Part shown: in pieces, positions 10,595 to 56,745 of the stretch
Numbering within the stretch: position 1 is the stretch's first letter
Layout of the letters: every line of letters starts with the position of its first letter
IMG/VR virus record: IMGVR_UViG_3300035675_000001
Direction: 5' to 3' (one strand)
DNA from: a virus
Lineage: Duplodnaviria; Caudoviricetes
DNA: 64,000 nucleotides
Translations under genes and position numbers: made by a program
The notes under the pieces: model-generated
What the model was told of the DNA's origin: nothing
Database searches by the model: none
What the model saw: the letters and a program-made list of their open reading frames with translations, nothing else

Positions 10595-12028
10595 ATGGAT
10601 GACGATTTCAAAGAGCTGTATGTGCCGGACGCCGAAGCGATCCCTGAGAAGGATATTCGCTGGTGGTCCCGCTACATGTCGCGGCGGAAGTTCCAGACGG
10701 AAGCCGAAGCCAGGGAGGAGATTTTTCGCATCCTCCAGCACAACGACACGCAGAGCTGGGCGCACATCTTCGGCCCGCAGGGCGAGCCTAAGAACCGCTG
10801 GGAAGCCGACAACATGCCCCTTTACCAAAACAAATGGGGGCACTGGAAGGTTGGCCGTCCCCTCAGCCACTACCGCCGCCTGGAGCTGCCGGGCGACGCA
10901 GAGGAGCGCGAGCGCCAGAAACAGGTCCAGCAGATTCTCCGGCAGCACCAGCTTCGGGAATACCTCTCGAACAACACCAGCGATTTCTCTGACGGCACCA
11001 ACGGCGAGCCGTCCGCCCAAGCCTCGTTCGCGGGCGATGGCGGCACCAATGTCGGCCTGCCGGACTACAAGTATGCGGAGCGCAAGGAGCGCAGGCACGC
11101 CAAGCTGCGTGCGCTCATCAAACGCCGCGATCCCACGCACCGGTCCAACGTGGACTGGGATGTCCGGGCGCGGGCCGGTATGCGCGAGAGCGAGGAAGAA
11201 GACATGATGAAGGAAGTCTCGGAGCCGCCGCCCACGCTCCAGGCTGTCCCTACCCATCGCACCGAGGAATACCTCGTCACCCGCTACGACGGCCAACACC
11301 TGGGCGCAATTTTCCTGGAGCCGGAGGAGCACATGCCGAAGGTTCCGGTCCTGCTCAAGCTCCATCAGATGTATCCCTGGGTCGCCTGGTGGGGGATGGA
11401 GACCGCCCGCTTCAAGACCAAGGAGCAGGCCGTGGCCCACCTGGTAGCGATTGCCAAGGGCGAGTTCCCCGACAAGCACCACCCTGACCGCCAAGGCCGG
11501 GCCTACATGCAGTCGATGAGGAACCGGGCGCTGGGTGAGATGCCCAGGGAAGTCGAGGAAGCCCACGAGGAGCTGGCCGACGCCGGAGCTTACCCGGACA
11601 ATCCCTTCTCGACCTGGATGACGCTCGACCACACCAACCCGGACGGTGAAGCCGTCTATGAGGCCACACACGAAGTGCGCGTCAACGGCGCTCCCTACTA
11701 TGCCAGCGCCAAGATCACTATTGGCCTGCCGGGCGGACACTGCTGGCTTTACACGCACTGGGCCTTTGAAGATTTCGACCGCTGGACCGACATCCCTCGC
11801 GGCGGCATGAACCAGCAGCCCTACTGCCCGACGATGGAGGACTTGCAGGCGCTCTCCGATGACCTCCAAGCGTTCCTCAAGTCCGTCGAGACCAGGGACG
11901 AGGAGCAGGTTCGTGCGGCCAACGACCTGATCGGATCGAAGATTTACAGCGGCAGGCGCACCGGCTACAGCAAAGGCGTAGTCGAATCCCATGCCGCCGA
12001 GATTGTGAAGAACCTGTTGGAAGCGTAA
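10595..12028 (+). CDS. Tagged polyprotein A (477 aa)
   Basis: Starts MDDDFKEL, has internal MRE|SEEEDMMKEV, and ends AAEIVKNLLEA. Confidence 0.65.
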   Translation: MDDDFKELYVPDAEAIPEKDIRWWSRYMSRRKFQTEAEAREEIFRILQHNDTQSWAHIFGPQGEPKNRWEADNMPLYQNKWGHWKVGRPLSHYRRLELPGDAEERERQKQVQQILRQHQLREYLSNNTSDFSDGTNGEPSAQASFAGDGGTNVGLPDYKYAERKERRHAKLRALIKRRDPTHRSNVDWDVRARAGMRESEEEDMMKEVSEPPPTLQAVPTHRTEEYLVTRYDGQHLGAIFLEPEEHMPKVPVLLKLHQMYPWVAWWGMETARFKTKEQAVAHLVAIAKGEFPDKHHPDRQGRAYMQSMRNRALGEMPREVEEAHEELADAGAYPDNPFSTWMTLDHTNPDGEAVYEATHEVRVNGAPYYASAKITIGLPGGHCWLYTHWAFEDFDRWTDIPRGGMNQQPYCPTMEDLQALSDDLQAFLKSVETRDEEQVRAANDLIGSKIYSGRRTGYSKGVVESHAAEIVKNLLEA

Positions 12029-12043
12029 TCTGTTCTATTGAGT

Positions 12044-14765: not shown

Positions 14766-15371
14766 TCATTCGATGTGATACTTGCGCTTCATCTCCCGTT
14801 TCCAGTTGGCAAACTCACCCGCCAACTTGTCTTCGTCAACAATGAGCGCGTTCTCCAGATCACCGATGGCCATGACGAGGGTTGTGAAGGTCAGCCCCTC
14901 GACGGTGCGGACGATGAAGAAGCGGTGCTTGCCGGGCACAACCTCCGAAAGATTGCGCTGCTCCAGCCACTCGACCAGCTCCATGTGGAGGTCGTCGAAA
15001 ATCTCCTGCTCCTCGTCGTCCCCTGGCGGGCCGTAAAGCTCCTCCAGGACGGTCTGATGGGCGTCCCACTCGAACCACATCATCACGTCGGCCTCGCGGT
15101 CGTCCGGGCGGAAGGCGGCGTCGAGGCCGCTGTCGCTCCAGGGGTAAGAAGTCGGTCGGCTTTGGACCTTGAACTCGTAGCCCCGGTCCCACAGCGACTC
15201 CATTTCCGCGAACTCCCTGGGGGCCTTGCGCTGCCAGTCTTGCTCATGGCTATTCCAGAGGGAGTCCTTCATCCTGATCTCGACAGTAACCGGCTGATAC
15301 CCGGCGTCTTTCACCAGGTCTTCGTCATCGGTTTCGAGCAAAAACCGGAGGATTGGCTGCGTGCGGTCCAC
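14766..15371 (-). CDS. Tagged protein B (201 aa; GTG start at 15371)
   Basis: MDRTQPILRFLLE|TDDEDLVKDAG carries the same leader and tag as the polyproteins. Divergent from the terminase gene. Confidence 0.6.
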   Translation of the reverse strand: MDRTQPILRFLLETDDEDLVKDAGYQPVTVEIRMKDSLWNSHEQDWQRKAPREFAEMESLWDRGYEFKVQSRPTSYPWSDSGLDAAFRPDDREADVMMWFEWDAHQTVLEELYGPPGDDEEQEIFDDLHMELVEWLEQRNLSEVVPGKHRFFIVRTVEGLTFTTLVMAIGDLENALIVDEDKLAGEFANWKREMKRKYHIE

Positions 15372-19142: not shown

Positions 19143-19183
19143 GATTTCCACGGGCGGAGTGCGTTCGTCCTGGTAGTTATGAC

Positions 19184-19543
19184 ATGGCAGATAATGAGCC
19201 AGCAGCAGTCCGTGTTGAGCTGGTGCCGTATTCGATGTTTGCGGCAACCCCGGCTTATCAGATTGACGCTGAACTCGATACCGGCAAAGAGTCGGTAATC
19301 GTGTTCGGCCTCAAGCGCGACCCTGTTGTCCCCGATCCCACCGACATCCTGTTCACCGTTCCGACCGGAGGCGGCGGACGGTTTGACCTCATCTCGCAAA
19401 AGTTCTACGGCACCCCGGAGCTATGGTGGGCCATCTCGCGCTGCAATGTTGACCTCGACCCGATGATCGGGCCAGAGGTTGGCAGCATCATCCGGGTTCC
19501 AACCCGCCTGCGACTGGCCAGCCTGGGGGTGCTGAATGTCTGA
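19184..19543 (+). CDS. Baseplate/tail-X LysM-like protein (T4 gp53-like)
   Basis: GRFDLISQKFYGTPELWWAI...N....PEVGSIIRVP. Confidence 0.75.
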   Translation: MADNEPAAVRVELVPYSMFAATPAYQIDAELDTGKESVIVFGLKRDPVVPDPTDILFTVPTGGGGRFDLISQKFYGTPELWWAISRCNVDLDPMIGPEVGSIIRVPTRLRLASLGVLNV

Positions 19544-21284
19544 GGCCCTGGCCATCCTCGCCCGCGTGCTGGAGTCCGACGAAGATTTCGTCGGCAAGGA
19601 CATGGACATCCACATGCCCTACGGCATCGGCAGCCGCGTGAAGGTCACCGATGGTGACTACACCGGCGAGCCAGGCACGGTCATGGGCATGGGGAACCTG
19701 GGCAACAACGTGCGCGGCTTTTGGGTCCACCTGGACGGGGCTGACGACGACATCAACAGCGCGATCCTCTACCCCGCCGACCGCCTGGCTCCCGCCCACG
19801 ACCTCAAGTATCCTCCCGGCATCCTCTGGCGCATCACCCAGGGCGAGTTCGCCGGGCGCAAGGCCATCCTGACCGGCACCAACAAGGCCGGAAGCATGTT
19901 CGTTCACGTCGAGGGGCACCCGGACGACTGGCAGATGATTTCCATGCGCCAGAACGAGTTGGAGCCGCTGGCCGAATCCGAGCTGATGGGCGACGAGGAC
20001 GACGTAAAAGCTGTGGCGGGCTACGTCACGCCGGAGTTGCAGCTCGACACCGATCCCAAGTCGAAGAACCAGCAGACTTTTGTTTACGCCTACGGCGAGT
20101 TCATTGGGACCGTTTCCGAAGACCTGGCCACGCCGGGCGACTGGGTGGTGACCTTCGTGCCCAACAAGGGCTACATCTGGAAGCGCGGGTTCAGGACCAG
20201 AGAGGATGCCGCAATGGCGATCTGGCAGGACCGCATCGGCATGAAGAAGCTGCGCGAGGAGGTCGAAGATGACGAGGGCTTCAAGGACGTTTACAGCGGC
20301 GAATACCCGACGTTCAACTTCCTGGTGAAGCGCGATCCGCAGGGCCGGGAGCAGTGGGGCAGCGGGGTGTGGAATGTTTACATCGACGGCTCAGAGCTGG
20401 GCATGGAGCACGTCCCCCACATGTGGATCGGCGAGATCGAAGCCGTGCGCGGCGAGGGCAACCAGCTCCAAGGCTGGCGCATCAGCAACCTGCCCTACCC
20501 GTCATCGCCCAAAGCCATCCCTGAGCTTTTTCCGCAGCAGCTCGACGCCGCCCGCTACATTTGGGGCGAGCGCCTGCGCCCGCGCAACGAGGCCAAGGAC
20601 CATCAGCGAGTTCGCCGCCTGGTCGGCAAGCTGATTGACGAAGCCGATGAGGACGAGCCTGACTTCAAGGAGTTCGCCTTCGATCCCGTGGCCAGCGCCG
20701 TAAGCGCCCTGGAGGGAGCCGGGTTCAAGATCGAGCGAGCCGACCGTGAGGGCGACGACATCTTCCTGCGGTTCACCTGGCCCGCGTTCAACGCCGTCGC
20801 CTACATCAATGGGGCCAAGCGGGCGCTGGAAGCCATCCGGCCTTTCATCAACGTGAGGCACGGCGACTACCGCGTGGACCGGGAGCTGGACGAGCAGGGC
20901 CAGAAGATCGCCCGCATGTTCATCCGCCGAAAGGATGACCAGGCACCCTGGCTCTGGAAGATCGAGCGCATCCCCAACTATTACGACCACAATGTCGCGC
21001 CGGGGGACGTGGTGAACACGTCGGCGGAATACAAGATTTTCTTCAATGGCCAGGAAGCAGGACTGTTCTTGGCACCGAACTATGACGTAGCGGAGCGCGT
21101 CCGGGAGGAGATGGCCCAACTGCACAAGGTGCATGGGTTTTACCCTCCTGGATGGGACGCGCCCGGTAACGCATGGGGCAAGGGCCACGCCATTGAGTGG
21201 TGGAGACGCAACCGTAAAAAGTTAGGCAACGTCGCCAGAAGCAACGAACCGTTTTTTGATCGGGGCCTCCTGGCGACCCGATAA
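19536..21284 (+). CDS. Tagged polyprotein C (582 aa) with KOW/SH3-like repeats
   Basis: MSEALAILARVLE|SDEDFVGKDM and three more tags. IGSRVKVTDGDYTGEPGTV and WRITQGEFAGRKAIL are KOW-like. Confidence 0.7.
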   Translation: MSEALAILARVLESDEDFVGKDMDIHMPYGIGSRVKVTDGDYTGEPGTVMGMGNLGNNVRGFWVHLDGADDDINSAILYPADRLAPAHDLKYPPGILWRITQGEFAGRKAILTGTNKAGSMFVHVEGHPDDWQMISMRQNELEPLAESELMGDEDDVKAVAGYVTPELQLDTDPKSKNQQTFVYAYGEFIGTVSEDLATPGDWVVTFVPNKGYIWKRGFRTREDAAMAIWQDRIGMKKLREEVEDDEGFKDVYSGEYPTFNFLVKRDPQGREQWGSGVWNVYIDGSELGMEHVPHMWIGEIEAVRGEGNQLQGWRISNLPYPSSPKAIPELFPQQLDAARYIWGERLRPRNEAKDHQRVRRLVGKLIDEADEDEPDFKEFAFDPVASAVSALEGAGFKIERADREGDDIFLRFTWPAFNAVAYINGAKRALEAIRPFINVRHGDYRVDRELDEQGQKIARMFIRRKDDQAPWLWKIERIPNYYDHNVAPGDVVNTSAEYKIFFNGQEAGLFLAPNYDVAERVREEMAQLHKVHGFYPPGWDAPGNAWGKGHAIEWWRRNRKKLGNVARSNEPFFDRGLLATR

Positions 21285-21435: not shown

Positions 21436-21917
21436 GCTTTTTAACTGAACGCAAGATGGCGAACACGCTGGACGTGCCCATCGCCCTGCCCGCCACGGAA
21501 CTCAAGATGTCCGATTGGCTGGTGATCGCCACGATCAAGCTGACCGCACCTTCGCGCCTCGCGGTGCGGATGCTCCACTTCAACTTCATCAGCTCGACCG
21601 TGGACTTGCAGAACATCAAAACGGTCAACTACATCAACTCCAGCATGGGCTTGTGCTACGTGGGGCTGTTCCTGAACTACACGAACGGCGACCCCTCGCA
21701 GCTCACCAAGCTCGACAAGGTGAGCGCCAGCAGCCTGGGCGTCTTCACCCGCCTTGGCAATCCGCTCATCATCAGCACGCCCGGCACCTACACCTGGCTG
21801 GCCGTCAACAACGTCCAATACAGCAACCAGAACCCCTACCTCACGGTGACGGACAGCGCGGACTTCCGCGTGAGTTGCACCGGCCAGTGGCGCATTGAAC
21901 TCGACCCGACGCAATGA
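21432..21917 (+). CDS. Putative structural beta-protein (paralog of 25927-26352)
   Basis: TLDVPIALPATEL.....IATIKL ... LGV ... PGTYTW.AVNN shared with its paralog. Confidence 0.55.
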   Translation: MSFLTERKMANTLDVPIALPATELKMSDWLVIATIKLTAPSRLAVRMLHFNFISSTVDLQNIKTVNYINSSMGLCYVGLFLNYTNGDPSQLTKLDKVSASSLGVFTRLGNPLIISTPGTYTWLAVNNVQYSNQNPYLTVTDSADFRVSCTGQWRIELDPTQ

Positions 21918-24900
21918 AGGAAGTGGATGACATCCTGGCCGCGCTCCTGGAGGATGAGGATGACCTCAGCTCCAAGGACGTGTTCTTCCCCAATGACCCC
22001 AAGGCTGTGGACTTCTCCGAGCCGCTGGCGGGCAATGAGGCGAAGCTGCGCCGGGTGTTCACCTGGCTCACGCGCCTGGGGATGACGCCCGCCTTTGGCA
22101 GCGTGCCCATCGGCTGGTATCAACAGGCCCAGTTCGAGGCCATCGACCGGCTGCGGGCGCTGGCCAAGCTCAAGGGCATTGACCTGCGCTGGGTCAAAAA
22201 GAAGAACGAGCACATCCTGGCCTATCACCAGGACCGCTGGGTGCCCATCGCCAAGTTCGGCTGGCGAGATGAGCTGGTCGCCGAAGCGATGGACGACGAC
22301 TTCGACATGAAGGAAGTCACGGGCGGGGCCTTCGATGAGCTGGCCCAGCTTGTAGCCAGCGGCGTCCTGGACCTGAGCGGCAAGGTCGAGCGTGGCAGTT
22401 CCCGCTACGTCCACGAGCGCAGCACCACCTTCGAGCTTTACAACAGCTACAACTGGCCGGACGACATGCCGCAGGAGGAGCGCGAGGCCGAAGAAGTCCG
22501 CATCGACAAGCTCATCAGCGAGCTGGAGAAGTATGTCAGCGAGCGCATCGTTGCCTGGAACCACAAGATTTACCAGGAGTTGGAGAAGGACTACGAGTGG
22601 GCTTACGAGGACGAGAACATCGCCGACACTCTGGAAGCAAACGACTACCACTTCACCGAGGATGGTGAGCGGGATGATGAAGGCCCATTCACCTACCAGC
22701 AACTCCAGCCCGACGCCCAAGAGGCTGCCCGCCAGTGGTGGAAGGACGCCAACGAGCAGGACAACTGGTGGAGCGAATCGACCATTGCCGAGTGGAAGTG
22801 GCTGCTCGACCAGAAGGGATTCCTTGGCGTGGAGATCGCCTTTAGCGGCTTCTGGAGCCAGGGCGATGGCGCTTCCTTCGAGGCCAAGCGGTTTGACGCG
22901 GCCCAGTTCTTCAAGGGCGTCGATCCCCTCGACTTCCCGGAGCAGGACCGCGAGCAGATGAGCGAGTCCCAGGAAGATGACATCCATCCCAAAGACCTGG
23001 CGACCACCAACCCGGAGGACGTGGCTTCCGAAATCCTCCGCCTGGTCACCGCCATTCCGGGCGTGACCGACGTGACCATGACCAGGGGCGCGGTCAACCC
23101 GGAGCACGTCATCATCAACGGCAAGATCAACCTCGACCACTGGGACGCGGGCTACGCCATCGACAAGGCGATCTTCCCGGTCATGGAGAACCCTGCCGTC
23201 GAGATTACTCGCCACACCGCCTTCGCCGCCCCGATGGACAAATATCCGCGTGGCTTCGCCGTGGTGGTCAAGCCCGCGCTGCGCGAGTCACTGCTGGAGC
23301 GTTACGGCGGGGCCGAGAAAGAGCGCCAGATTTTCTACCACGGCACGACCTCCACCCTGCTGCCCAAGATTCTCGCCCAGGGCTTGATTCCCAATCCCAA
23401 GGTCCGCTCCTGGTCCGACGATCCGCACAAGGGCCTCATCCAGCCCTCGCGCCAAAGCCTGGAGGGCATCTACGTCACGACCAACCTGATGACTGCCGTC
23501 TCCGCCGCTGGCCGCGTGGCCCGGCGCGACAAGGCCCACCGGCTGATCGTGGTGATGGAGCTGCAACCCCGCGACCTCCTGGCCGACGAGGATGACATCG
23601 GCGGCACGATCAACGCACTGGCCAACCACATCAGCGACCACGTTTACTCGCACATCTGGCCCTACTTCGCCGAAGTCTATCGAGACCGAATGCGCTACGC
23701 GGAGGAATACGCGCCCCGCGCCGACCAGGCCAAGGCCAAATGGGTGGACGACGCCGCCAAGCAGATGCTCTACAAGTTCGGCCAGAACAGGCCGGAGCTG
23801 GAGACCCGCCTGCGCGAGCTGCTGGCCAACGAGGGCTACCGCATCATGCTGACCCGCATGGCCTCCTATGCGGGCGACTGGGAGAAGGGCTACTGGCACA
23901 GCGAATGGCGGCACCTGTTTGGGACCGACGAGGACGCTCCTCCGGTGCCGGACAAGAACCAGGCCGAAGCAGACTTTCTCGCTTTCAAGGACAAGCTGAC
24001 GCGCACGCTCAAGGGCAAAGCCCGCCCGCTGATGCAGAAGGACTGGAAGCTCAACGTCAGTGGCCGGTCCATGAAGCCCATCGGTTTCGACGGCAGCGAC
24101 CGCATCATCTGCATCGTCGAGGAGATCGACCACTCCGGGCCGGAGTATTACACCGGCATGATCGTCCACTACGGCAAGCCGCCCGAACAGCTCATCAAGG
24201 ACTGGACCGAATCCCACGGCCCCCTGGACAAGCCAGACAGCATTGTTTACAAAAACGCGCAGCAGGAAGCTTTCGAGACGCACGGCCAGGCTTTGGCCCG
24301 CACCGGCGAGTGGGGCACCCAGGCGGCAGGCGGCGTCTATATCGCCCAGGACACCGGGCGCGTGCTCATCGGCTTTCGCTCCAGCGATGTTCTCAAGCCG
24401 CACACCTGGGGCACCTTCGGCGGAGCAATGGACGAAGGCGAAGACGCGGCCACGGCTGCCCAGCGCGAGATGAAGGAGGAGACCGGCTACAGCGGGCCGA
24501 TGGAGATGAAGCTCGTTTACGTTTTCGAGAAGGGCACGTTCAAGTATCACAACTTCGCCGTCATCGTGCCCGCCGAGTTCAAGCCGCGCCTCAACTGGGA
24601 GAACGATGACGCCGAGTGGTTCGAGCCGGGCAAGTGGCCAAGCCCGCTTCACCCTGGCATGGATCAGCTTCTTTCGCGCCTGGGCGCGGTCCAGGAGTCC
24701 GAGGATGACGACTTCGACGTGAAAGAAGTGGCCAAGGTCGATGACGGAATCTTCGTCAACTACACCTACGACTCGCACGACCCCGATGGCCAATACGAGC
24801 AGGTGTGGGAAGACGAGGGACCGTTCGTGTCCATGCAGAGCGCCTACGAGTGGGCGCAGAAAAACCTGTCCCGCGACAAGATCGCCGAGCTGAACATCAC

Positions 24901-25930
24901 CCGCGAAGTCCTGGGCAGCGTGACCGACAAGATCATCGTCGATCAGTTTTGGGGAACCTGGGAGAAGCGCGGCGAGCAAACGGTTCCTGTAAACATTTCC
25001 GAGGCAGCCGATGACGACTTTGAAACCAAGGAGATCGCCGAGTTTGACCCGGACCCGTTGACGTTGACGCGCAACTTCATGGAGACGGCCTACACGACGC
25101 ACGGCGATCTGGACCGCTTCATGACCAAGCTCTCCGAGGTCGTGGACTGGCCCCAGCTCTACGCCGCCTATCCGCGCATGGCTGACATGCCGGTCAAGCT
25201 TTACGGCGGCGTGCCCATGCAGATCGGCTGGGCTGTGAGCAGACCCGGCACGGTTGCAGGCGTCAACCTGGAGCCAGGGCAGACTGTGTTCCTTGTTGGT
25301 CGCCAGGCATTCGATGATGCGCCCAAGCGCCTGGAGCGCCGGTTCGCGTGGGCCATCAAGTGTGCCCTCGACGTGCTCGATGGCCGCAACCCGGACAAAG
25401 AAGCCGCCAAAGAGTGGGCCGCGAGAAAGACCAAGAGCCGCTGGCCCGACGACTACCAGTATGGGTTTGAAAGCCGTGATCCCGACGCCGTAGTGGAAAC
25501 TGCCGAAGACGACTTTGAGGTCAAGGATGTGGGGCTGCCCGGCCAGAACTGGACCTACCACATCTTCCGCTTCCCCACCGCAGCGGCCATCAACTACTTC
25601 GTGGTCGAAGACCCGGCCTTCAAACACGAGCCGTTTGTGACCGACCGCACCGGCGATGAGCTGGAACGCGGCATCCGCCCTCGCTGGCCCAACTGGGACA
25701 AGCTGGGCAAGACGGTGGGCGGTCACACCTTCCCCCGGCGAATGCCGGACAAGGAGCTTCACCAGATCGCCCAGGCGCAGATCAGGCAGTTCTTGAGAGC
25801 GGGCGAATTTCCGCGCCAGGGCTACCGCGACGTGTGGGAATGGATGCGGGATGTGCGCGACACCGGCAAGCCCCATGATCCGCTCCCGTGGGACATCCGC
25901 AGGCGCGGCAATACTTACAGACAGATATGA
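21914..25930 (+). CDS. Tagged polyprotein D (1338 aa) with ART-like, Nudix and other domains
   Basis: Six acidic tags. FYHGTT..LLPKILAQGL..GIYVT (ART/KptA-like) and GTFGGAMDEGEDAATAAQREMKEETG (Nudix box). Confidence 0.8.
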   Translation: MKEVDDILAALLEDEDDLSSKDVFFPNDPKAVDFSEPLAGNEAKLRRVFTWLTRLGMTPAFGSVPIGWYQQAQFEAIDRLRALAKLKGIDLRWVKKKNEHILAYHQDRWVPIAKFGWRDELVAEAMDDDFDMKEVTGGAFDELAQLVASGVLDLSGKVERGSSRYVHERSTTFELYNSYNWPDDMPQEEREAEEVRIDKLISELEKYVSERIVAWNHKIYQELEKDYEWAYEDENIADTLEANDYHFTEDGERDDEGPFTYQQLQPDAQEAARQWWKDANEQDNWWSESTIAEWKWLLDQKGFLGVEIAFSGFWSQGDGASFEAKRFDAAQFFKGVDPLDFPEQDREQMSESQEDDIHPKDLATTNPEDVASEILRLVTAIPGVTDVTMTRGAVNPEHVIINGKINLDHWDAGYAIDKAIFPVMENPAVEITRHTAFAAPMDKYPRGFAVVVKPALRESLLERYGGAEKERQIFYHGTTSTLLPKILAQGLIPNPKVRSWSDDPHKGLIQPSRQSLEGIYVTTNLMTAVSAAGRVARRDKAHRLIVVMELQPRDLLADEDDIGGTINALANHISDHVYSHIWPYFAEVYRDRMRYAEEYAPRADQAKAKWVDDAAKQMLYKFGQNRPELETRLRELLANEGYRIMLTRMASYAGDWEKGYWHSEWRHLFGTDEDAPPVPDKNQAEADFLAFKDKLTRTLKGKARPLMQKDWKLNVSGRSMKPIGFDGSDRIICIVEEIDHSGPEYYTGMIVHYGKPPEQLIKDWTESHGPLDKPDSIVYKNAQQEAFETHGQALARTGEWGTQAAGGVYIAQDTGRVLIGFRSSDVLKPHTWGTFGGAMDEGEDAATAAQREMKEETGYSGPMEMKLVYVFEKGTFKYHNFAVIVPAEFKPRLNWENDDAEWFEPGKWPSPLHPGMDQLLSRLGAVQESEDDDFDVKEVAKVDDGIFVNYTYDSHDPDGQYEQVWEDEGPFVSMQSAYEWAQKNLSRDKIAELNITREVLGSVTDKIIVDQFWGTWEKRGEQTVPVNISEAADDDFETKEIAEFDPDPLTLTRNFMETAYTTHGDLDRFMTKLSEVVDWPQLYAAYPRMADMPVKLYGGVPMQIGWAVSRPGTVAGVNLEPGQTVFLVGRQAFDDAPKRLERRFAWAIKCALDVLDGRNPDKEAAKEWAARKTKSRWPDDYQYGFESRDPDAVVETAEDDFEVKDVGLPGQNWTYHIFRFPTAAAINYFVVEDPAFKHEPFVTDRTGDELERGIRPRWPNWDKLGKTVGGHTFPRRMPDKELHQIAQAQIRQFLRAGEFPRQGYRDVWEWMRDVRDTGKPHDPLPWDIRRRGNTYRQI

Positions 25931-29976: not shown

Positions 29977-30674
29977 TGTGCCGGGATCAAATTCCAGTCT
30001 GCATCCAGTCCTGCTCGAAGGAGTTCGCCTTCGAGCGGCGAATGGCTTGCCTGGACACTTGGGTTCCGACGTTATCGTCGAAATTCTACCCCATCTTCCT
30101 GGTCGGCAACCCCGACCAGGAAGTTGATTACATCTTCAAGGAGCTAGGCCCTGGCTGCGGCAATTACCTCAGCGTCCGCTTCTGCGACGAGTGGTATGCG
30201 CTCTCCGGCAAGATGAGGCGCTGGTGGGTGTGGGCGCTGGAGCACTTCGACGCGCCCTGGTTTTTCAAGTGCGACGACGACAGCTACGTCAACGGCAGGC
30301 TGTTCAACGATTTCCCCTTTGAGCGTTACGACTACACCGGCCATTTCTACACCGAAACTTACGCCTGGAAGCAGAAACGTCCGCTGGTTGGCAGCGAGAT
30401 TCAATACAAGGCCCACGGCGCGGGCTACAGCCTTTCCCGGCGCTGCGCCAAGCTCGTGTCCGAGAAGCTGGGCGACTGGGAGCCTGGCGGCGAAGACGTG
30501 AGCACGGCCAGGACCATCTTCAACGGCATCCCCGACGTGGTGATCCACGACATGTGGGAACCGCGAGTCGCGCCCTGGGCCAGACTGAACATGCAGCCCG
30601 ACTGGTTGGTCGGCCACGAGATTCGGGGCATGGACATGATGCGCCAGGTTCACCGGAAGGTAGTTAATCCGTGA
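29976..30674 (+). CDS. GT31/Fringe-like glycosyltransferase (galactosyltransferase family)
   Basis: WFFKCDDDSYVN (DDD motif), YTG, GAGYSLSR, GEDV and C-terminal H. Confidence 0.8.
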   Translation: MCRDQIPVCIQSCSKEFAFERRMACLDTWVPTLSSKFYPIFLVGNPDQEVDYIFKELGPGCGNYLSVRFCDEWYALSGKMRRWWVWALEHFDAPWFFKCDDDSYVNGRLFNDFPFERYDYTGHFYTETYAWKQKRPLVGSEIQYKAHGAGYSLSRRCAKLVSEKLGDWEPGGEDVSTARTIFNGIPDVVIHDMWEPRVAPWARLNMQPDWLVGHEIRGMDMMRQVHRKVVNP

Positions 30675-43030: not shown

Positions 43031-43039
43031 ACATGGGTA

Positions 43040-43068: not shown

Positions 43069-43075
43069 TTCGCGT

Positions 43076-49324: not shown

Positions 49325-49504
49325 CTACTTGATGGTGTAGGCGACTGCCTGGATGGCAGCCAGGAAGTTGTTCAACGTGCGGACGGCCTTGCTCCGGCGC
49401 GTGTAGCCCTCACCGCACTCGGCGATGACCCGGCCACTGCGCTTGGCGTGCCAGCGCCAGCCGTCCTTGCCCTCGAAGAACTCGATCATGACTTTGTTTT
49501 TCAT
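49325..49504 (-). CDS. DUF1508/YegP-like protein (59 aa, below the ORF-track cut-off)
   Basis: Manual translation MKNKVMIEFFEGKDGWRWHAKRSGRVIAECGEGYTRRSKAVRTLNNF..., matching the W.W....G.+IA..GEGY.....A pattern. Confidence 0.7.
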   Translation of the reverse strand: MKNKVMIEFFEGKDGWRWHAKRSGRVIAECGEGYTRRSKAVRTLNNFLAAIQAVAYTIK

Positions 49505-50286
49505 AGCTCAACTCTTGACTCGGCCAATTCACAGGTTCGGCAGAGAATGTCCATGCTTGGATCAAGCTGGCCCGCAATGACTCGCAAGTATTCCGGGCTG
49601 CGGTGCAGATCAGCGTAGTTCTGGTTCACCAGGTTGCCCAACACATGCTTGAGAGCGTAGTCCATGCAGCAAAGCACAACGTCACCCGAAGGAAGCAGGA
49701 CGTTGCGCTTCATACTCACGCCCCTCTGGCAGCGAATCGGTCCTGGCGCAACTCGCCCCGCCAGCTCAGCCACGTTGCCTGCCCGACTGCTGGGCCAGCT
49801 TCCAATGACCTCCGTGCTCCACCCAAACAAGGCCGCGACGCGGTGGTTAATCTTGCCGAAAAACGAAAAGTGGCAGCCAGGCCGCGCACACTCTTTCAGG
49901 GTCTCAAGGTAGCGGTCTGTGACCTCCAGGTTCATGCGGCCACTGTCATCCGGCAAATGAAGGCTGATCCGATTGGCAGGGACCAGTTTCAGTGTTTCCA
50001 CGTCGTCACGGGTCATTCCTTGCGTCGTCGTAAAGACGGTCACTGGGTTACCGCGCTCAAGCGCGAGCCGAATCATCCGGCCACAATCCGGGTTGATGAA
50101 CGGCTCGCACATGCCGCCAAAATCCAGCTCTGCCTCCCTGGGGAGTTTGCTGAGGCACGTTTGAAACAGCTCCAAGGACATGAAGCGCGGTCCCTGGTAG
50201 GCCCGCGTAATCACGCGCTGTGGGCAGTAGGGGCACGCCACAGGGCACCCCACAGCAGTCGTGATCTCCATGCGCTCGCTATTCAT
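49501..50286 (-). CDS. Radical SAM protein with SPASM/twitch domain
   Basis: CPVACPYC, FGGMCEP.INP, TT.G, G.V.LCC.DY...LGNL...C..C. Confidence 0.88.
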   Translation of the reverse strand: MNSERMEITTAVGCPVACPYCPQRVITRAYQGPRFMSLELFQTCLSKLPREAELDFGGMCEPFINPDCGRMIRLALERGNPVTVFTTTQGMTRDDVETLKLVPANRISLHLPDDSGRMNLEVTDRYLETLKECARPGCHFSFFGKINHRVAALFGWSTEVIGSWPSSRAGNVAELAGRVAPGPIRCQRGVSMKRNVLLPSGDVVLCCMDYALKHVLGNLVNQNYADLHRSPEYLRVIAGQLDPSMDILCRTCELAESRVEL

Positions 50287-50289: not shown

Positions 50290-53200
50290 TCAGCTCTTGA
50301 CGCGACCCGTCTCAACCAGGAACGCCCTGGCCTGGTCCGCATCAAATTGAATGTCATTCAGCTTGTAGCCTGACTCGGCCAGGCTCTTGATCTCCTGGTC
50401 GCTGGCCATGAGCAGCCAGCCCGTGGCGTCGAAGCCGCTCGTGGCCGCAACCGTGGGCAGCGCCTTGGTCTCCGCGACCACAATGCCCTCGTTCATGATC
50501 TGGCCGGAGAAGTGGCTCCAATCCAGGACGGCACCGCAGGCACCGCACTCCTGCATATCGAGGTCGTCGGCGTCGCCCGCCTCGATCCCGTTGAAGCCCG
50601 CCTTGAGGTAGCTGAAATCCGTCATCAGGTCGCCCTGGTGCCCACAGGCCGGGCAGCGCACGATGTGCCGGAGGTCGGGCGTCTTCTGGATGTAGATGAG
50701 GCGCAGCTCCGGGACCAGCTCCTTCCAGTCGGCCTCCTCGGACTCGGCAACTTTGTTTACAATTCTGACATCGTTGATCTGATCCCACGGCCACTCCGGG
50801 TGAATCTTCTCACCATAGGAGATGGCGTAATCCATCGGATCATCCAATGGGTAGTATTCTCCCGACAGTTGCTTGTTGAGCGCCTTCCAGTTGGGCCAGC
50901 GCCGGATCACGTCCCAAGGAATTTCCAAGGTCTCGATCCTGGGGCCGTGCTCGCGGGTGTCGTCATCGAACACGAACTGGACTACCGGCAGGATGTCCTG
51001 CGAAGTGGTCAAGTCCTTTCCTCCGATTTCGTCTTCGGCTGACTCTTGAACCTGGTCGGGCGGAATGAAGACTACATCCACCAACCAGTCCCAGTCATCC
51101 TTGTCCACGTCCCGGCGCGTGCGGCGAGCATAGTCGATCACCCTGTCCTGGACATCACCGCCCTCCTCGAAGCTGTTCTCCACTTCGGCCAGGCTGTTCA
51201 CTCCCAGCTCGCTGTAGGGCACCGTCAGCCAAACACTGTAGCCCCGCTCGCCTGCGCCGAAATCGAAACCCAAACGGAACTGCGGCGGCGGGTCGATATT
51301 CACCACGTCCTTGTGGCCGATGTCCTCCTCGCTCTCGTCCACGTCATGGCCATGAACATCGGCGATGGCCCCCTCGTTGTGGACCCGCACCCGGCGCATC
51401 AGCGACTCGATGGCCTCATTCTTCATGTCGTCGTAGTAGCCGCCCGGCTGCTTGAAGTCCTCGGCGCTGTGGTAGGAGCAACCGCCCAACCAGGCTTCGC
51501 CGCTGAACATCTTGCCGTTGGGCGCGGTCCACCGAGCAATAACGTGAGCGGAGCACCAGCCCCACTCGTTGCCGTTCTCGATCTGCTCGCGTGCCCAGGC
51601 CGCATCCTCCGGCATGGGGAAGTGATCCTCCGGCGTTTCGTCTTCCGGCTCAGCAACCAGGACGACCTCGATCTCCTCCGGCGTGGGCGGCTCGATGTAA
51701 TCGCTGGGCGGGGTGACCTGCTTCCAGTCGGCTTCGTCGTCTTCCTCTTTGAGCAGAGCCTCGACCACATCGTTCGGGTCGTAGTCGCCGTGGCCCAGGA
51801 CATAGCCAGGCTCCTCAACGTGCTCGACCTCGTAGTCGTGGTTCAGGTGGTGCCGCTTGAGGAAGTTGAAGCGGTCCTTCATGTCGAACTCCTCGACGTA
51901 AACCTCGTCCGCCTTGTTGAACAAACTCGACGTGTAGGCAAAGTTCAACGCCTTCTCCAGCGTGGGCATGACGTTGGTGTGATACCACTGGTCGTCATCA
52001 GGCTGGAGACCATGCCAGTTCACTCGGAACCAGATGCGTTGCTCATCCGCCACGTCCTTCCAGTCAGGGTCTTCCTCGCTCTCCTGGTGGTAAGCGCCCG
52101 GAGAGTCCAGGCTGTTGACAACCCGCAGCACTTCCACCGAAGGGTTCTTGGCCGAGAAGATCGCCGCCGCTTCCTCCGCATTGCGAGCGTGGACGCCGTA
52201 ATGGCCCTGACCCACCGTGGACTTGTAATAGACGATGAACAGGTTGGGCTTGCCAGAGTGCGCGGCATCCTTCCAATCCAGGTCATCCTCAGACTCGCGC
52301 ACCGGCCCCCACACATTCTCCGGCCAGTCGGCATTGCCGCCAGCAGCCCTGATCTTTCGGATCAGCTCCTCCGTGAACCGCTTCGGGTTGGTGTAGGTGT
52401 CGTGGTAGATCGGGAAATATCCCTCCTGACCACGGCGCTGATACACGACCAGGTGCCACTGACGCTCGCGCACCGTATCCTCGTCGATCAGAGGCTCGGT
52501 GTGCTCGACGGTCATCATGATGTTGGCCTCCGGCTTCACATCATCGCGCCAGGTGAGCATGTGCCACTTGTCGTCCATGCGGAAGCCCAGGCCCGCCATC
52601 CACTCCAGCAGGCTGTCATCGGAAGCCACGTCCTTCCAATCAGGATCGTCCTCGCTCTCATTGGCGATGGGCGTGAGCTTGAACACGAACTCGTGGTCCG
52701 CGCTGCCGCCAGGTATCATCTGGACCGCTACCTGGTTCTTGAAGGCATACTCCGCCGCGAACGTCACGGCTTTCAACGCCTGCTCATCCTTCACGCTCTG
52801 CTCCAGGTTCGGCTCATTGAACTCGCCGTTGAAGCGCACGTCCCAGGTCCGGTCGGTCGCGTCCGGCTCAGACAAGCCGATGTCCAGCCAACCGAAGGTC
52901 TCCAGGGAACTGATGAACGCCTGCGGGTCATACTGCTTGGCGCGACCGCCTGCCACGCGCTCGTCCCCATTGCTCAGGACCGTTTCCTTCCAGTCAGCCT
53001 CATCGCTCTCCTCCAGGCCGTTCTCGTTCGGCTCGTTCGGATTGCGGTAGGTATCCACAATCTTCCAGCCAGAGTTGTTGTCGAGCGGAACCTCGCGGAT
53101 CAGGCTGCCGTCCGGGTTCACGAGCACGATGGCCTCGGTGCCGAACGGACAATCGTTCAGGTCGATGACGCCCTCGTTGATGAAGTCGCCCAGCTTGAAG

Positions 53201-56200
53201 ACCGTAGCCTGGTCGAACTCCTCTATCCAATCTCCTACTTCATCGGAGAAGTAATGCTTCACATACGGAGTGCCTGGCCGATCCATCAGGGTGAACGGGC
53301 ACATGAACTTCACCCACTCGCTCTCGCCCAGGACCAGCTCTTTCCACGAACCCTCGTCGTCCAGGCTCTCGTGCCAGGAATAGACCGGCTTCATGCTGGT
53401 GATGTGGCGTGCGCGGGTGTCCGGCCAGCGGAAGTTCTCGAACCTGGCGCGGGCTTCTTCCTCGCTCGCTGCGGTCAGCGTGATCTCGAACGGCATCCAC
53501 TTGCGGCCACTGCGGGACACGTAGTTGACCTTGAATCCAACCGGCACAGCCAGCCCGGCATCCTTCATGTCGAAGTCATCCTCGGACTCTTTGACCAGGA
53601 AGCTGCGAGCCTGGCTGCCATCAAAGGGCCGGTAGGTCACGAAGCTTGCGTCGTCCTCCAGGTCCAGACCTTGGACCTCCTCCGGCTTCACGCCCGCCAG
53701 CTTGGGCAGGTGTTCAACTCCGGCCTGGAGCGTGTCCATGTGAATGATGCCGTCGTAGCCCTGGGCCTTGGCGGCTTCGACGTAAGCGGGATTGTCAACA
53801 ATCGCATACGTGTCGATCTCCACGCCGTCGAGCAGATACTCCAGAATCTCCATGCGCCTGCTCTCGATGGCCGCTGGGTCTTCCTCCATCTCGGCCAGGT
53901 CGTCGATGGCGTCCTGGAGGTCTCCCCAATCGCTGATGCAGGTGATGTCGTTGGCCGAGCAGGTGAAGTCCACCGAGTATTCCAGCTTGGTCAGGTGATA
54001 CTGGTAGTTGCCGATCAGCTCGCTCAGGTCATCCCACGAGAAGGTGTTGTTGGCGGGCGCATTGCTAAAGTCCCAGCGCAGGCGCTCGATGGCTTGCCAG
54101 AGCGTGGTCTGCGTCCCCAGGTCGCGCAGGTCCAGCGGCTTCTTCATGCTCAGGCGATACTTGCCCACGTTCGCGCCGGGCCGGAACTCCGGCTGGCCAA
54201 ACAGCTCGTCCCTGGTCGCCGCGAACACGCTGGCGATGTGCGGGCTGGTCGTAAAGCTGGGCGTGCTGCGGCCCTGGCGGGTAACGAACTTGCCCGGCTT
54301 GGGCACCTTCTTCATCCCCCGATAGACCGGCAGCGGATTGCCCTCCGGGTCCGTGATGTCGCCCTCGGCCTCGGCCAGAGCTTCCTCGGTCTGCTCCGGC
54401 TCGTTCTTGAAATCCATGATGGTGTTGTCCTGGTCATCCTTGAGCCGAAGCTTGTCGGTCTGACACTTGGCCATCATCCATTCCCACTGAGCGCCGGTGG
54501 GCGTGCCGCCGTCGATCAACATGCTGTCGCCGGGCTGGATCGCCACGCGCATGTAGCCCCGCGCATACATGGCCCGATAGACCTTGCCCTGCATCGTCCA
54601 ATACTCGCGCTCCACAGCGGAGGGCGGCATGGTGATGCCCAGCTTCCTGGCCGCGTAGTCCAGGTGGTTCGCACCCGCATACTCCGGCTGGCCGTTGCGC
54701 GTGAGCCAGATGTTGACGTGGCCGGTGACCTCCTGGATCACAGACTCACCCAGGCCACGACCGCCATAATACCACCAGTCGTAAACCTGCTGCTGCCAGT
54801 CTTCGTATTGGTCCGGGTCTTCGGGCGGCTCGCCAAACTGCTCGATGGCCCGCGCCATCATTTCCTGCTCGTCCTCATCGCGCTTGGCATACTCCGCGTC
54901 GCGCCACTGCTCATACTCTTTGCGCCACTGCTCGCGTTCAGCTTCCCTGGCCGGACGCCCGCGCTCCCACTCCTCCTCGTCTTTCTTGCGCTGCTGCGGG
55001 GACCGGTAACGCTTCCAGGCATCCAGGGCGTAGCTCAAGGATTTCTCCTTGTCGCCGCGTGGATTGTAAAGCGAGGCCCGGCCTGCTCGCGCCCGGAGAG
55101 TGTCGAGGCGCTGGGCCAGAGCTGGGTTCTTGGCTGCCGCGTGCGGGCACAGCCAGGTTTTGCACGCCAGCGGCTTGTCAGCCTTGCAGCCCTGGGGCGA
55201 CCAATGCTCGCAGCCCTTGCAGCAGAGGGTGTCCATATCGACACCGCCGCCATACTTGGCCTGAGCCAGTGGGTCAGAGTAGATGCCCTCGCGGCTCCCC
55301 AGGCAGGTGACATGGCCCGTCTTGGTGTCGATCTGACAGGGCTTGTGTTTGGCCAGCGCACCGGCTGCCTGGCCATAGAGCTTATTGTAAACTTTTTCCA
55401 ACCGCTCGCGGTCAACGGGCTTGGCCTCCTGGATGGCCACGCGCAGGATGGACTCCAGCATCTCCGGCTCCATCTCCGAGTCGCCCAGGTCCACGGTGAT
55501 CTCCACCAGGTCGTGGTTGTGAATCCAGACCTTGGCGTTCTCAGGCAGCGCATTCTGGATCAGCGTGCGCCAGCCGCCGTAGTAGTCGCCCGCCTCGGCC
55601 CCAGGGTAGGGGATGACCGTGTAGATCGAGAGCTGGTCGTGGCCGGTGGTCGGGTTGCGCTTACGCGAGTCGTAGGCATAGACGTGCTGCTTGTCGATCT
55701 GCACCGGGTGCGCGAGGTCCGGCCACGCGGTCGTGCGGGTAGCCAGGTCGCCTTTGACGTAAAACTTGAAGCCCGCTCGCTTGAGCTGATCCATGACCTC
55801 CAACGCGGCCACGCGGTCCAGCTCGCCCAGGTGCGGGCGGACCAGCTCCTTCCAATCCTCGCTGTCCTCCGGCTCCTCCAACGACTCCATCTCGCCGTAA
55901 ACAATTCCGCGCAAAAGCTTCTGGTAGGGCATCCAGTCGATGGCTGCCATCTTCTTGGAATACTTGTCCTCGCATTTGCCCTCCTCCTCGCCGGGCACCA
56001 ACTCGCGGCACTGCTTGGGCCGCTGCTCGTAGCCAAGCTGGCAGCCGCCCGGTCCCTTGAGTTCGCACCGCTCATACTCGCCGCTGCCGGTCATGAAGCT
56101 GCGCCGGGCGCGGGGCCGGACCATCATCACGTCCTCCTCGGCATCCGGGTTCTGGCCGGTGGGGTCGCCATACCAGGAGTCGATCTCGTAGCGGTCGCTG

Positions 56201-56745
56201 TCGAGCGCGGCCTTGATCTTCTCGCGCATGACGTTCACGTCGGGCGCTCCCCAGTCCTCCGGGCTGGTCATGCCTGGATACCAGGAGCAGCACTTGCCGC
56301 CGCACTTGGCACAGAGGCCGGTGTTCTGCGCCTCGTCGATGAACCGCTTGGCCATCTGGCTGTAAGGCTTGCCGATGACATAGCCCTTGCGCTGGAGCTT
56401 GGCCGGGTAGAAGCCTGGCAGCCGATTCGGACAAATGGTATTGACCGCCTGAGCCTGTTGCTCCCAGGTCGGGGTCTCGTTCTCGCCGAAGCCACGCATC
56501 CGGGTCCAGCCGACCCAGCTATGGGCCTTGCTCAGCTTGCCGTTGCGGGTGAAGACCGGGACGATGAAGTGGACGTAGTAGCAGTCGTCGCCGTAGCGGG
56601 AAGGATCGTGGGCGAAGGCGTGCCATTGCTGGAGCTGCGCGAGCTGCGCCGACTCCTCTGGCACCATCGTCAATTCTTTCCAGCCGCCCTCATCTGGCTC
56701 ATCAGCCTCAATGAGTTGTCGGACGATCTTGTCAGCTTCGTTCAC
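50290..56745 (-). CDS. Tagged polyprotein F (2151 aa) with two Cys-cluster domains, an ART-like domain and many small domains
   Basis: MNEADKIVRQLIE|ADE...WKEL and 12 acidic tags in total. CAKCGGKCC...RP.QCR, CCKGC...CKTWLC, VYRG...SFTTS...A...AQGYDGIIH. Confidence 0.8.
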   Translation of the reverse strand: MNEADKIVRQLIEADEPDEGGWKELTMVPEESAQLAQLQQWHAFAHDPSRYGDDCYYVHFIVPVFTRNGKLSKAHSWVGWTRMRGFGENETPTWEQQAQAVNTICPNRLPGFYPAKLQRKGYVIGKPYSQMAKRFIDEAQNTGLCAKCGGKCCSWYPGMTSPEDWGAPDVNVMREKIKAALDSDRYEIDSWYGDPTGQNPDAEEDVMMVRPRARRSFMTGSGEYERCELKGPGGCQLGYEQRPKQCRELVPGEEEGKCEDKYSKKMAAIDWMPYQKLLRGIVYGEMESLEEPEDSEDWKELVRPHLGELDRVAALEVMDQLKRAGFKFYVKGDLATRTTAWPDLAHPVQIDKQHVYAYDSRKRNPTTGHDQLSIYTVIPYPGAEAGDYYGGWRTLIQNALPENAKVWIHNHDLVEITVDLGDSEMEPEMLESILRVAIQEAKPVDRERLEKVYNKLYGQAAGALAKHKPCQIDTKTGHVTCLGSREGIYSDPLAQAKYGGGVDMDTLCCKGCEHWSPQGCKADKPLACKTWLCPHAAAKNPALAQRLDTLRARAGRASLYNPRGDKEKSLSYALDAWKRYRSPQQRKKDEEEWERGRPAREAEREQWRKEYEQWRDAEYAKRDEDEQEMMARAIEQFGEPPEDPDQYEDWQQQVYDWWYYGGRGLGESVIQEVTGHVNIWLTRNGQPEYAGANHLDYAARKLGITMPPSAVEREYWTMQGKVYRAMYARGYMRVAIQPGDSMLIDGGTPTGAQWEWMMAKCQTDKLRLKDDQDNTIMDFKNEPEQTEEALAEAEGDITDPEGNPLPVYRGMKKVPKPGKFVTRQGRSTPSFTTSPHIASVFAATRDELFGQPEFRPGANVGKYRLSMKKPLDLRDLGTQTTLWQAIERLRWDFSNAPANNTFSWDDLSELIGNYQYHLTKLEYSVDFTCSANDITCISDWGDLQDAIDDLAEMEEDPAAIESRRMEILEYLLDGVEIDTYAIVDNPAYVEAAKAQGYDGIIHMDTLQAGVEHLPKLAGVKPEEVQGLDLEDDASFVTYRPFDGSQARSFLVKESEDDFDMKDAGLAVPVGFKVNYVSRSGRKWMPFEITLTAASEEEARARFENFRWPDTRARHITSMKPVYSWHESLDDEGSWKELVLGESEWVKFMCPFTLMDRPGTPYVKHYFSDEVGDWIEEFDQATVFKLGDFINEGVIDLNDCPFGTEAIVLVNPDGSLIREVPLDNNSGWKIVDTYRNPNEPNENGLEESDEADWKETVLSNGDERVAGGRAKQYDPQAFISSLETFGWLDIGLSEPDATDRTWDVRFNGEFNEPNLEQSVKDEQALKAVTFAAEYAFKNQVAVQMIPGGSADHEFVFKLTPIANESEDDPDWKDVASDDSLLEWMAGLGFRMDDKWHMLTWRDDVKPEANIMMTVEHTEPLIDEDTVRERQWHLVVYQRRGQEGYFPIYHDTYTNPKRFTEELIRKIRAAGGNADWPENVWGPVRESEDDLDWKDAAHSGKPNLFIVYYKSTVGQGHYGVHARNAEEAAAIFSAKNPSVEVLRVVNSLDSPGAYHQESEEDPDWKDVADEQRIWFRVNWHGLQPDDDQWYHTNVMPTLEKALNFAYTSSLFNKADEVYVEEFDMKDRFNFLKRHHLNHDYEVEHVEEPGYVLGHGDYDPNDVVEALLKEEDDEADWKQVTPPSDYIEPPTPEEIEVVLVAEPEDETPEDHFPMPEDAAWAREQIENGNEWGWCSAHVIARWTAPNGKMFSGEAWLGGCSYHSAEDFKQPGGYYDDMKNEAIESLMRRVRVHNEGAIADVHGHDVDESEEDIGHKDVVNIDPPPQFRLGFDFGAGERGYSVWLTVPYSELGVNSLAEVENSFEEGGDVQDRVIDYARRTRRDVDKDDWDWLVDVVFIPPDQVQESAEDEIGGKDLTTSQDILPVVQFVFDDDTREHGPRIETLEIPWDVIRRWPNWKALNKQLSGEYYPLDDPMDYAISYGEKIHPEWPWDQINDVRIVNKVAESEEADWKELVPELRLIYIQKTPDLRHIVRCPACGHQGDLMTDFSYLKAGFNGIEAGDADDLDMQECGACGAVLDWSHFSGQIMNEGIVVAETKALPTVAATSGFDATGWLLMASDQEIKSLAESGYKLNDIQFDADQARAFLVETGRVKS

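Follow-up and report, generated by a model that had tools for sequence, protein, structure and literature searches.

The stretch of DNA analysed here (the window) comprises 64,000 nucleotides (nt) of the viral record IMGVR_UViG_3300035675_000001 (Duplodnaviria; Caudoviricetes), an uncultivated phage from Joint Genome Institute (JGI) wetland metagenomes that also codes for phage helicase, topoisomerase-like and tail-fibre genes. Six of its open reading frames (ORFs), g1 to g6, contain a short repeated element in which a hydrophobic-x-Glu sequence leads into an acidic stretch, or tag, with an invariant Lys. Anchoring on that Lys, we located 26 clear copies and 1 degenerate copy: 2 in g1, 1 in g2, 3+1 in g3, 6 in g4, 2 in g5 and 12 in g6. 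A preliminary description of this DNA had reported six unlinked genes with about 27 copies of one linker (2, 1, 4, 6, 2 and 12). The same per-gene counts were recovered here, all six ORFs translate as described, and every linker quoted as an example reappears in the translations, but the genes are not all unlinked, as 630 nt and one small gene are all that separates g3 from g4. The genes and their elements are given below, with lengths in amino acids (aa) and a slash after the Glu of the element; ART stands for ADP-ribosyltransferase.

10595..12028, plus strand: g1, 477 aa, 2 elements; begins directly with the acidic tag MDDDFKEL
10595..10618, plus strand: g1 N-terminal tag MDDDFKEL, without leader
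11177..11218, plus strand: g1 internal element GMRE/SEEEDMMKEV, kept in the relatives G001 (GLRE/AEEDFEPKDM) and L042
14766..15371, minus strand: g2, probably 201 aa from the GTG at 15371; leader DRTQPILRFLLE, then tag
15303..15344, minus strand: g2 element FLLE/TDDEDLVKDA
19536..21284, plus strand: g3, 582 aa, 3 clear elements and 1 degenerate; N-terminal leader MSEALAILARVLE
19563..19604, plus strand: g3 N-terminal element RVLE/SDEDFVGKDM
19965..20015, plus strand: g3 degenerate element LAESELMGDEDDVKAV, read as LAE/SELMGDEDDVKAV, with A in place of D/E after the K
20250..20291, plus strand: g3 element LREEVEDDEGFKDV
20634..20675, plus strand: g3 element IDEADEDEPDFKEF
21914..25930, plus strand: g4, 1338 aa, 6 elements; phrog_5162 domain (aa 259-336), ART/PARP-like region and NUDIX domain (aa 804-922)
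21941..21982, plus strand: g4 N-terminal element ALLE/DEDDLSSKDV, with leader MKEVDDILAALLE ahead
22277..22318, plus strand: g4 element VAE/AMDDDFDMKEV
22958..22999, plus strand: g4 element MSE/SQEDDIHPKDL
24689..24730, plus strand: g4 element VQE/SEDDDFDVKEV, just past the NUDIX match
24995..25036, plus strand: g4 element ISE/AADDDFETKEI
25490..25531, plus strand: g4 element VVE/TAEDDFEVKDV
30671..32140, plus strand: g5, 489 aa, 2 internal elements; first module YHGT (ART-like)
31103..31144, plus strand: g5 element ALNE/SAEDFDSKDV
31835..31876, plus strand: g5 element TLGE/SEEEDDFKDA
50290..56745, minus strand: g6, 2151 aa, 12 elements; its C-terminal half (aa 1053-2151) is made of ten unrelated modules of 63-142 aa
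56671..56712, minus strand: g6 N-terminal element (Q)LIE/ADEPDEGGWKEL, with leader NEADKIVRQLIE ahead
55843..55884, minus strand: g6 element SLEEPEDSEDWKEL
53557..53598, minus strand: g6 element LVKE/SEDDFDMKDA
53335..53376, minus strand: g6 element WHE/SLDDEGSWKEL, with E, S, D, D, W, K and L invariant across 4 homologs
52981..53022, minus strand: g6 element NGLE/ESDEADWKET
52627..52668, minus strand: g6 element IANE/SEDDPDWKDV
52264..52305, minus strand: g6 element PVRE/SEDDLDWKDA
52051..52092, minus strand: g6 element YHQE/SEEDPDWKDV
51715..51756, minus strand: g6 element LLKE/EDDEADWKQV, with leader-like helix VVEALLKE ahead (in the structure model described below, residues 3-11 are helix and the tag is coil)
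51304..51345, minus strand: g6 element DVDE/SEEDIGHKDV, coil in the same model
51010..51051, minus strand: g6 element VQE/SAEDEIGGKDL
50716..50757, minus strand: g6 element KVAE/SEEADWKEL

The copies follow the consensus [L/V/I]-x-E-[S/A]-(D/E)3-5-[F/D/P..]-[D/G..]-[W/F/M/V..]-K-[D/E]-[V/L/A], often with a Pro/Asp/Gly-rich stretch after it. When the window was scanned in all six frames with a strict pattern, matches were confined to the coding frames of the six genes. Under a looser rule there were 22 matches in the 5,276 aa of the six proteins and none in the 63 other ORFs of the window (13,016 aa). Shuffling the residues of the six proteins gave 0.51 +/- 0.72 matches under this rule, with a maximum of 4 (n=1000 shuffles). 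Of the serine codons within the element, 11 are AGC and 9 are TCN, and where residues are identical the codon is the same in only 59% of cases, indicating selection at the level of the peptide and not of the DNA. The same codon diversity led us to reject a DNA repeat or recombination as the main origin of the linker.

No close relative of this phage was found among GenBank phages. A degenerate DNA pattern of the tag matched 42 stretches in IMG/VR, of which only those of five contigs, at 55-62% GC, are truly related; the remaining matches were discarded as single chance hits in low-GC contigs. The relative G001 (238 kb, 96% complete) shares synteny with the window across ~52 kb, with protein identities of 35-82%, and holds about 30 copies of the element in 13 genes, nine of which have an N-terminal tag, most behind a leader. 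The element is also present in syntenic orthologs in L001, L005, L010 and L042. In three homologs of g6 (P0007-P0009), at about 47% identity, the E, S, D, W/F and K of common copies are invariant, and distant polyproteins (P0010, P0063 and P0080, the last on a 66-kb phage-like contig) carry the variant E-A/G-EEDWKEL.

The copies had been described as linkers, which holds for the internal majority but not for the five at N-termini (g1, g2, g3, g4 and g6). In g2, g3, g4 and g6 the N-terminal tag stands behind a leader of 10-14 aa, of the type M-x-x-x-x-I-L-x-x-L-L-E and ending L-L/I/V-E, so that these four proteins open with a predicted short propeptide ending at the putative cleavage motif, as g1 and g5 do not. 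The g1 ortholog in G001 (123866-124900) is tag-first like g1 itself and starts MDELDDFKEI. For g2, GC content at third codon positions is 0.58 ahead of the GTG at 15371 and 0.82 past it; the start is therefore most likely this GTG and not 15485, which makes the g2 copy N-terminal. At the position of g2, G001 has a different tagged gene of 127 aa.

Each copy had further been placed in front of a separate domain of 60-250 aa. The modules did prove independent where tested, but the segments between tags really span 63 to 754 aa, and the long ones comprise several domains, such as the ART-like region and NUDIX in g4. In g4 the last residue of the NUDIX Pfam match is 922, and the Glu of the next element follows 6 residues later, at 928. 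The one structure model to cover two copies is that of g6 residues 1655-1830, which was computed with AlphaFold from an alignment with 105 relatives and has a mean predicted local distance difference test score (pLDDT) of 82. Its residues 30-130 reach block-mean pLDDT values of at least 97, the upstream tag is coil (block mean about 58) following the short helix VVEALLKE, and the downstream tag is coil as well (about 48-58). Both tags are low-confidence coil outside the fold, which runs counter to an earlier concern that the motif might sit inside folded domains. On this model and the domain boundaries, the element is outside folded domains and between independent ones, where testable. The folded part of the model is the following module:

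51385..51675, minus strand: g6 module m9 (aa 1691-1787), a folded alpha/beta domain equivalent to a whole free-standing ~110-aa phage protein

The m9 fold superposes on residues 2-112 of an AlphaFold DB entry, a complete 'phage protein' of 113 aa (E 8e-8). A library-wide search with g6 residues 1040-2151 returned 1,103 matches at E up to 0.001, most of them free-standing proteins of 100-160 aa that cover single modules. Among the best 149 of these 1,103 matches, which are mostly to m9, the tag is absent in 138. A few small relatives of g6 modules carry leader and tag (P0021, P0035), and others are internal to different tagged polyproteins. When g6 and its three homologs were cut at their tags, the modules within one protein were mutually dissimilar. 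Four modules are unique to g6, those held in common occur in a different order, and one tag-plus-module separates two segments that adjoin each other in the g6 homologs. Judged from these comparisons, the polyproteins acquire, lose and rearrange their modules at the element.

Most of the 1,103 matches belong to the m9 family of ~110-aa free-standing phage proteins, which has conserved W-x-W-C, L-G-G-C-S-Y and G-G-Y-Y-D-D-M motifs and has neither a Pfam model nor a clear solved fold. Attempts to name m9 by fold failed: Foldseek against the PDB gave nothing at E up to 0.001 (the top entry being the Acb4 protein directed against cyclic oligonucleotide-based antiphage signalling, CBASS, at E 0.09), the best VIA-align Z score was only 5.9, and AlphaFold DB yielded matches to phage proteins without names only. 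We make no functional claim for m9.

Pfam and PHROG searches with the whole proteins and 10 excised modules gave almost nothing above threshold besides NUDIX and phrog_5162. No peptidase domain was above threshold in any of the six proteins, and no MuF or LPD match was found in them. Weak matches link g3 to KOW, g4 to PARP (E 0.026) and the second module of g5 to a transglutaminase-like domain with a Cys protease fold (E 0.009, below the cut-off). A lead to ART-PolyVal in g6 residues 790-1052 comes from language-model features only (score 0.93), with Pfam negative at E up to 1. These putative module types (NUDIX, the ART-PolyVal lead and the weak PARP match) are in keeping with injected effectors.

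The preliminary description proposed that a gp21-type prohead protease cuts the element after x-x-E. We pooled 73 copies, in 67 of which the Glu that opens the acidic run could be assigned. At P3, the first of the three residues ending in this Glu, Leu occurs 29 times, Val 16 times and Ile 5 times (L/V/I in 50/67), with Ala in 2/67; any hydrophobic residue (L/I/V/M/F/W/A) is found in 56/67. At P1', directly after the Glu, there are 27 Ser, 17 Ala and 11 Asp among the 67, so that Ser or Ala occupies 44/67. The spacing from Glu to Lys in the pooled copies is mostly 8-9 residues. In phage T4, Alt is cut at ITE-6 and LTE-619 and gp21 itself at LIE-9, and in phiKZ, 201phi2-1 and SPN3US cleavage is likewise after Glu, with Ser favoured at P1' in SPN3US (PMC5694885, PMC10052503, PMC9026906). 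The P3, P1 and P1' residues of the predicted site (L/V/I, E and S/A) fit these known Glu-specific prohead proteases.

A protease of the required family is present in the lineage. Peptidase_S77 (PF03420, the T4 gp21 family) is above its curated cut-off in G001, at 58 bits against a cut-off of 27, and in a second relative, G002 (102 kb). The G001 protease matches the T4 gp21 structure 5JBL by sequence (E 1.5e-6) and is fused to a long coiled scaffold-like tail, and the next gene codes for a Gp23-type major capsid protein. Because G001 combines an S77 protease-scaffold with a Gp23-type capsid gene, and S77 is also found in G002, we conclude that the lineage builds T4-type heads. The presence of S77, together with the P3 and P1' residues of the element, supports the proposed gp21-type cutting after x-x-E. 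In the window a related protein was found beside g6:

57359..57748, minus strand: 129-aa gp21-fold protein, two genes upstream of g6

The model of this protein has a pLDDT of 90.6, and a fold search of the PDB gave T4 gp21 as the best match (5JBL, E 5e-6, template modelling score 0.68 by query), followed by herpesvirus proteases. Aligned to the G001 protease with hhalign (probability 67%), it has the His in register and V-P-D-G opposite S-S-R-G. BLAST against the G001 protease was not significant, and a profile search of PDB sequences found nothing, so that the relation is visible to hhalign and the fold search only. Since VPDG replaces the nucleophile motif SSRG, the protein is probably inactive, and it looks like a truncated, inactive paralog of the protease. 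The order of paralog, about-155-aa gene and polyprotein is common to the window, G001, L063 and L064. SPN3US too has a diverged protease paralog whose role is unknown (PMC5694885). As speculation, an inactive substrate-binding copy beside the largest substrate might be a candidate reader of the element.

The reading towards which we lean, with slightly better than even confidence, is that the six genes encode cargo like the T4 internal proteins but made as polyproteins, and that the bipartite element of these T4-like jumbo phages both addresses and processes head cargo. The precursors would probably pack dozens of small anti-host proteins into the head as a few cleavable chains. The first half of the element would be the hydrophobic-x-Glu site, which at N-termini would close a 10-14-residue amphipathic leader (I-L-x-x-L-L-E), and the second half would be the disordered acidic stretch ending in aromatic/hydrophobic-x-x-Lys-(Asp/Glu)-(Val/Leu). 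Precursors made late would enter the scaffold/protease core of the prohead, with the leader playing the part of the T4 capsid-targeting sequence, and a gp21-type prohead protease would then cut after the Glu of each element (hydrophobic-x-E, before S or A). In this way ~25 proteins would be freed from the six genes, and more genome-wide, many of them 63-142 aa long and some larger and multi-domain. Each freed piece would begin with Ser or Ala and the acidic tag, and would be ejected with the DNA as an early anti-host effector, the set including ADP-ribosyltransferase-like, NUDIX and many unknown modules. The anatomy of the element, its conservation, peptide-level selection and disorder, the modularity of the proteins and the protease family of the lineage were observed here; late expression, targeting, cutting, packaging and ejection are what we infer.

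Several observations weigh against this proposal. The phage is uncultivated and known here from sequence alone. A catalytic protease gene was seen in relatives only, and the window itself has only the gp21-fold paralog. The P1 Glu was fixed by the rule used to assign it, so that only P3 and P1' are free observations, and g5 has no N-terminal leader or tag. In G001 the tagged genes lie outside the main head/tail gene cluster, although the ip and alt genes of T4 are likewise scattered. The T4 internal proteins are basic, the opposite of these highly acidic peptides. Finally, the acidic part is absent from the G001 capsid protein and protease-scaffold, and is therefore not needed for cutting in general.

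This last absence, together with g1 and its ortholog, which have nothing to remove, suggests that the acidic part probably has a role of its own. If the stretch is retained, the protease or core could dock on it on the P' side, the inactive paralog could use it as a handle, or it could signal retention or ejection. The proposed exposure of the tag at a new N-terminus has some indirect support from g1 and its G001 ortholog, which begin directly with the acidic part and lack a leader. A more ambitious version of the cargo proposal, which we put forward as improbable in its entirety, is a plug-and-play system: any small protein would become head cargo by acquiring one element, gene fusions would give precursors that are cut into a dozen effectors, and the acidic stretch would be a second signal, either read by the dead gp21-fold protein as adaptor or guard or serving head retention or ordered ejection.

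The alternative that survives best, though we consider it unlikely, is that the proteins are polyvalent proteins that stay uncleaved, with the element acting as a flexible acidic spacer whose docking motif is repeated for avidity and binds a packaging component or host target, the Glu being just part of that motif. Phage polyvalent proteins of 2-15 domains are known, and some, such as the N4 virion RNA polymerase, are packaged uncut (PMC5512222). Disordered tags would suit a spacer, as would the g1 tag at the very N-terminus, where there is nothing to cut off, and the lack of the acidic part in the G001 capsid and scaffold proteins. A spacer, however, gives no reason for the invariant Glu to be flanked by a hydrophobic P3 and a small P1'. 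The same junction also ends a short N-terminal leader, as it does in T4, and a Glu-specific protease is at hand in the lineage.

A second alternative treats the internal copies as scars of gene fusion, in which neighbouring leader-plus-tag genes were joined by stop loss, only the N-terminal copies work and likeness of the tag DNA eases module exchange. It would account for the leader-like helix kept at VVEALLKE (g6 tag 9) and at EILRALLE (residue 71 of a G001 protein), for the same module occurring both free with leader and tag and fused, and for the shuffled module order. We rate it as having little chance of being the whole explanation: internal copies are conserved as well as N-terminal ones, in orthologs at 47% identity, the codon diversity speaks against recent copying, and the leader helix is mostly lost at internal copies while hydrophobic-x-E-S is kept. 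Fusion is compatible with the head-cargo reading as an origin and is not an alternative function. Because some internal copies keep a leader-like helix, fusion scars are likely how they arose, and because the copies are conserved, we argue that they still work.

Cutting by another protease, of the host or a built-in module, in the cytoplasm or after injection and not in the prohead, has in our estimate just as little chance: Iyer et al. proposed that polyvalent proteins are processed by their own peptidase domains (PMC5512222) and g5 has its weak transglutaminase-like match, but the site fits the preference of S77, S77 is present in the lineage, and the lack of a peptidase domain above threshold in the six proteins makes it less likely.

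The closest parallel for polyprotein head cargo is provided by the T4 internal proteins IPI, IPII and IPIII and Alt. Neither sequence homology to the T4 internal proteins or Alt nor a match to PHROG or Pfam families of internal head proteins was found, so the likeness is in how the system would work and not in descent. The module sizes match those of the T4 internal proteins, with cargo of about 8-15 kDa. The lineage has an S77 protease and a gp23-type capsid protein as T4 does, and an ADP-ribosyltransferase is among the T4 cargo, for which only an ART lead exists here. The small anti-defence proteins of T4 are unrelated except for a capsid-targeting sequence of 10 residues, which takes them to the scaffold core and is then removed by gp21 cutting after Glu (PMC3012670, PMC9026906). 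Diverse small unrelated cargo and a common short N-terminal signal ending hydrophobic-x-Glu are thus features of both systems (PMC3012670, PMC9026906, PMC5694885). The T4 system differs in having one protein per gene and a signal that is wholly removed, whereas here there are up to 12 units per precursor, and a conserved acidic stretch with an invariant Lys follows the site and is predicted to stay on each product.

Polyvalent proteins (Iyer et al. 2017, PMC5512222) resemble the six proteins in carrying many unrelated effector-type domains on one phage polypeptide, including NUDIX and, as a lead here, ART-PolyVal, and they are predicted to be delivered with the DNA. They differ in that no repeated conserved linker is described in that paper, where the word 'linker' does not occur, and that processing is expected from built-in zincin peptidases (PMC5512222), none of which was found here; most modules here also fall outside the named polyvalent-associated families. 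The ejection and inner-body proteins of phiKZ-like giant phages (phiKZ gp175, 201phi2-1, SPN3US gp245) are alike in that a gp21-related protease cleaves many of the head proteins after Glu, one protein can have several sites, and SPN3US combines a preference for Ser at P1' with a diverged protease paralog (PMC10052503, PMC5694885). Their P3 residue, however, is S/A/G where ours is L/V/I, their multiple cuts destroy long propeptides and do not release folded modules, and no acidic tag has been reported for them. No PHROG matches to phiKZ-like inner-body or ejection families were found. The Dar proteins of phage P1 (DarA, DarB, Hdf, DdrB) are also anti-restriction head cargo and partly proteolytically processed, but they come from separate genes, follow an ordered incorporation hierarchy and have no common linear tag and no polyprotein.

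Glu-specific prohead proteases, capsid-targeting propeptides, polyvalent proteins and multi-site processing in giant phages are all known. What we did not find described is their combination: a conserved bipartite linker, with as many as 12 copies in a protein and dozens in a genome, that would yield unrelated small proteins with the same acidic N-terminus. The preliminary description knew of no conserved post-cleavage tag of this kind, and our literature search likewise found no description of an acidic post-cleavage tag or of phage polyproteins cut by a prohead protease.

Should the cuts prove real, a double-stranded DNA phage would be relying on a true polyprotein strategy to load dozens of distinct small effectors into its head at a fixed ratio, and the T4 capsid-targeting idea would extend beyond single proteins to whole cassettes. 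The element would in that case mark out injected proteins in the sequences of uncultivated jumbo phages, making many unknown modules, for example those of the m9 family, candidate early anti-defence factors. In laboratory systems, it would further serve as a short, portable signal with which to load foreign proteins into phage heads.

Further features were noted around the tagged genes. Cys clusters resembling CxxCxxCC occur in the first and second modules of g6 (aa about 145-250 and 508-534; E 0.003 for the first), and a CxxCxxCC (PF03692) gene lies nearby at 48560-49147 on the minus strand. A compact radical SAM and SPASM protein of 261 aa (49501-50286, minus strand) starts 3 nt past the g6 stop. 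SPASM enzymes usually modify peptides or proteins, and the Lys-Trp cross-link of streptide is the product of one. Trp-Lys is unusually frequent in the g6 tags of the window (9/12), and the g6 homologs use F-x-x-K. We rejected the radical SAM/SPASM gene as part of a general tag system because it is absent beside the g6 homologs in G001, L063 and L064.

The hexamer TAGTTA occurs 3-8 nt before start codons in the window (56750-56760, 19170-19183 and about 8490-8530) and before 11 genes in G001. It precedes g6, the operon leading into g3, the G001 ortholog of g6 and several large probable structural genes, and may be a late-gene or ribosome-binding signal. As a sign of late co-expression, start-proximal TAGTTA and GTAAACA would be suggestive only. 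Two paralogous ~155-aa genes (21432-21917 and 25888-26352, plus strand; 26-35% identity), both kept in G001, overlap the starts of g4 and of a 971-aa protein that has a segment in common with the tail fibre.

Elsewhere in the window, six tandem paralogous ORFs of ~230 aa at 650-5815 (plus strand), of which one is part of a 548-aa fusion protein, lack matches in Pfam and PHROG and are kept in G001 (131370-135736). A sigma-54 activator at 7091-8065 (plus strand) combines AAA+ with a Fis-type helix-turn-helix (E 3e-58) and is without a receiver or sensor domain. A promoter-like element, TTGAC-N14-TCGTTTACATT, stands 6-9 nt before an ATG at 37200-37275, 40036-40111 and 43017-43092 (plus strand), ahead of the helicase and two other genes. 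Because the listed TTG starts of these three ORFs fall inside the promoter-like element, their true starts are the ATGs.

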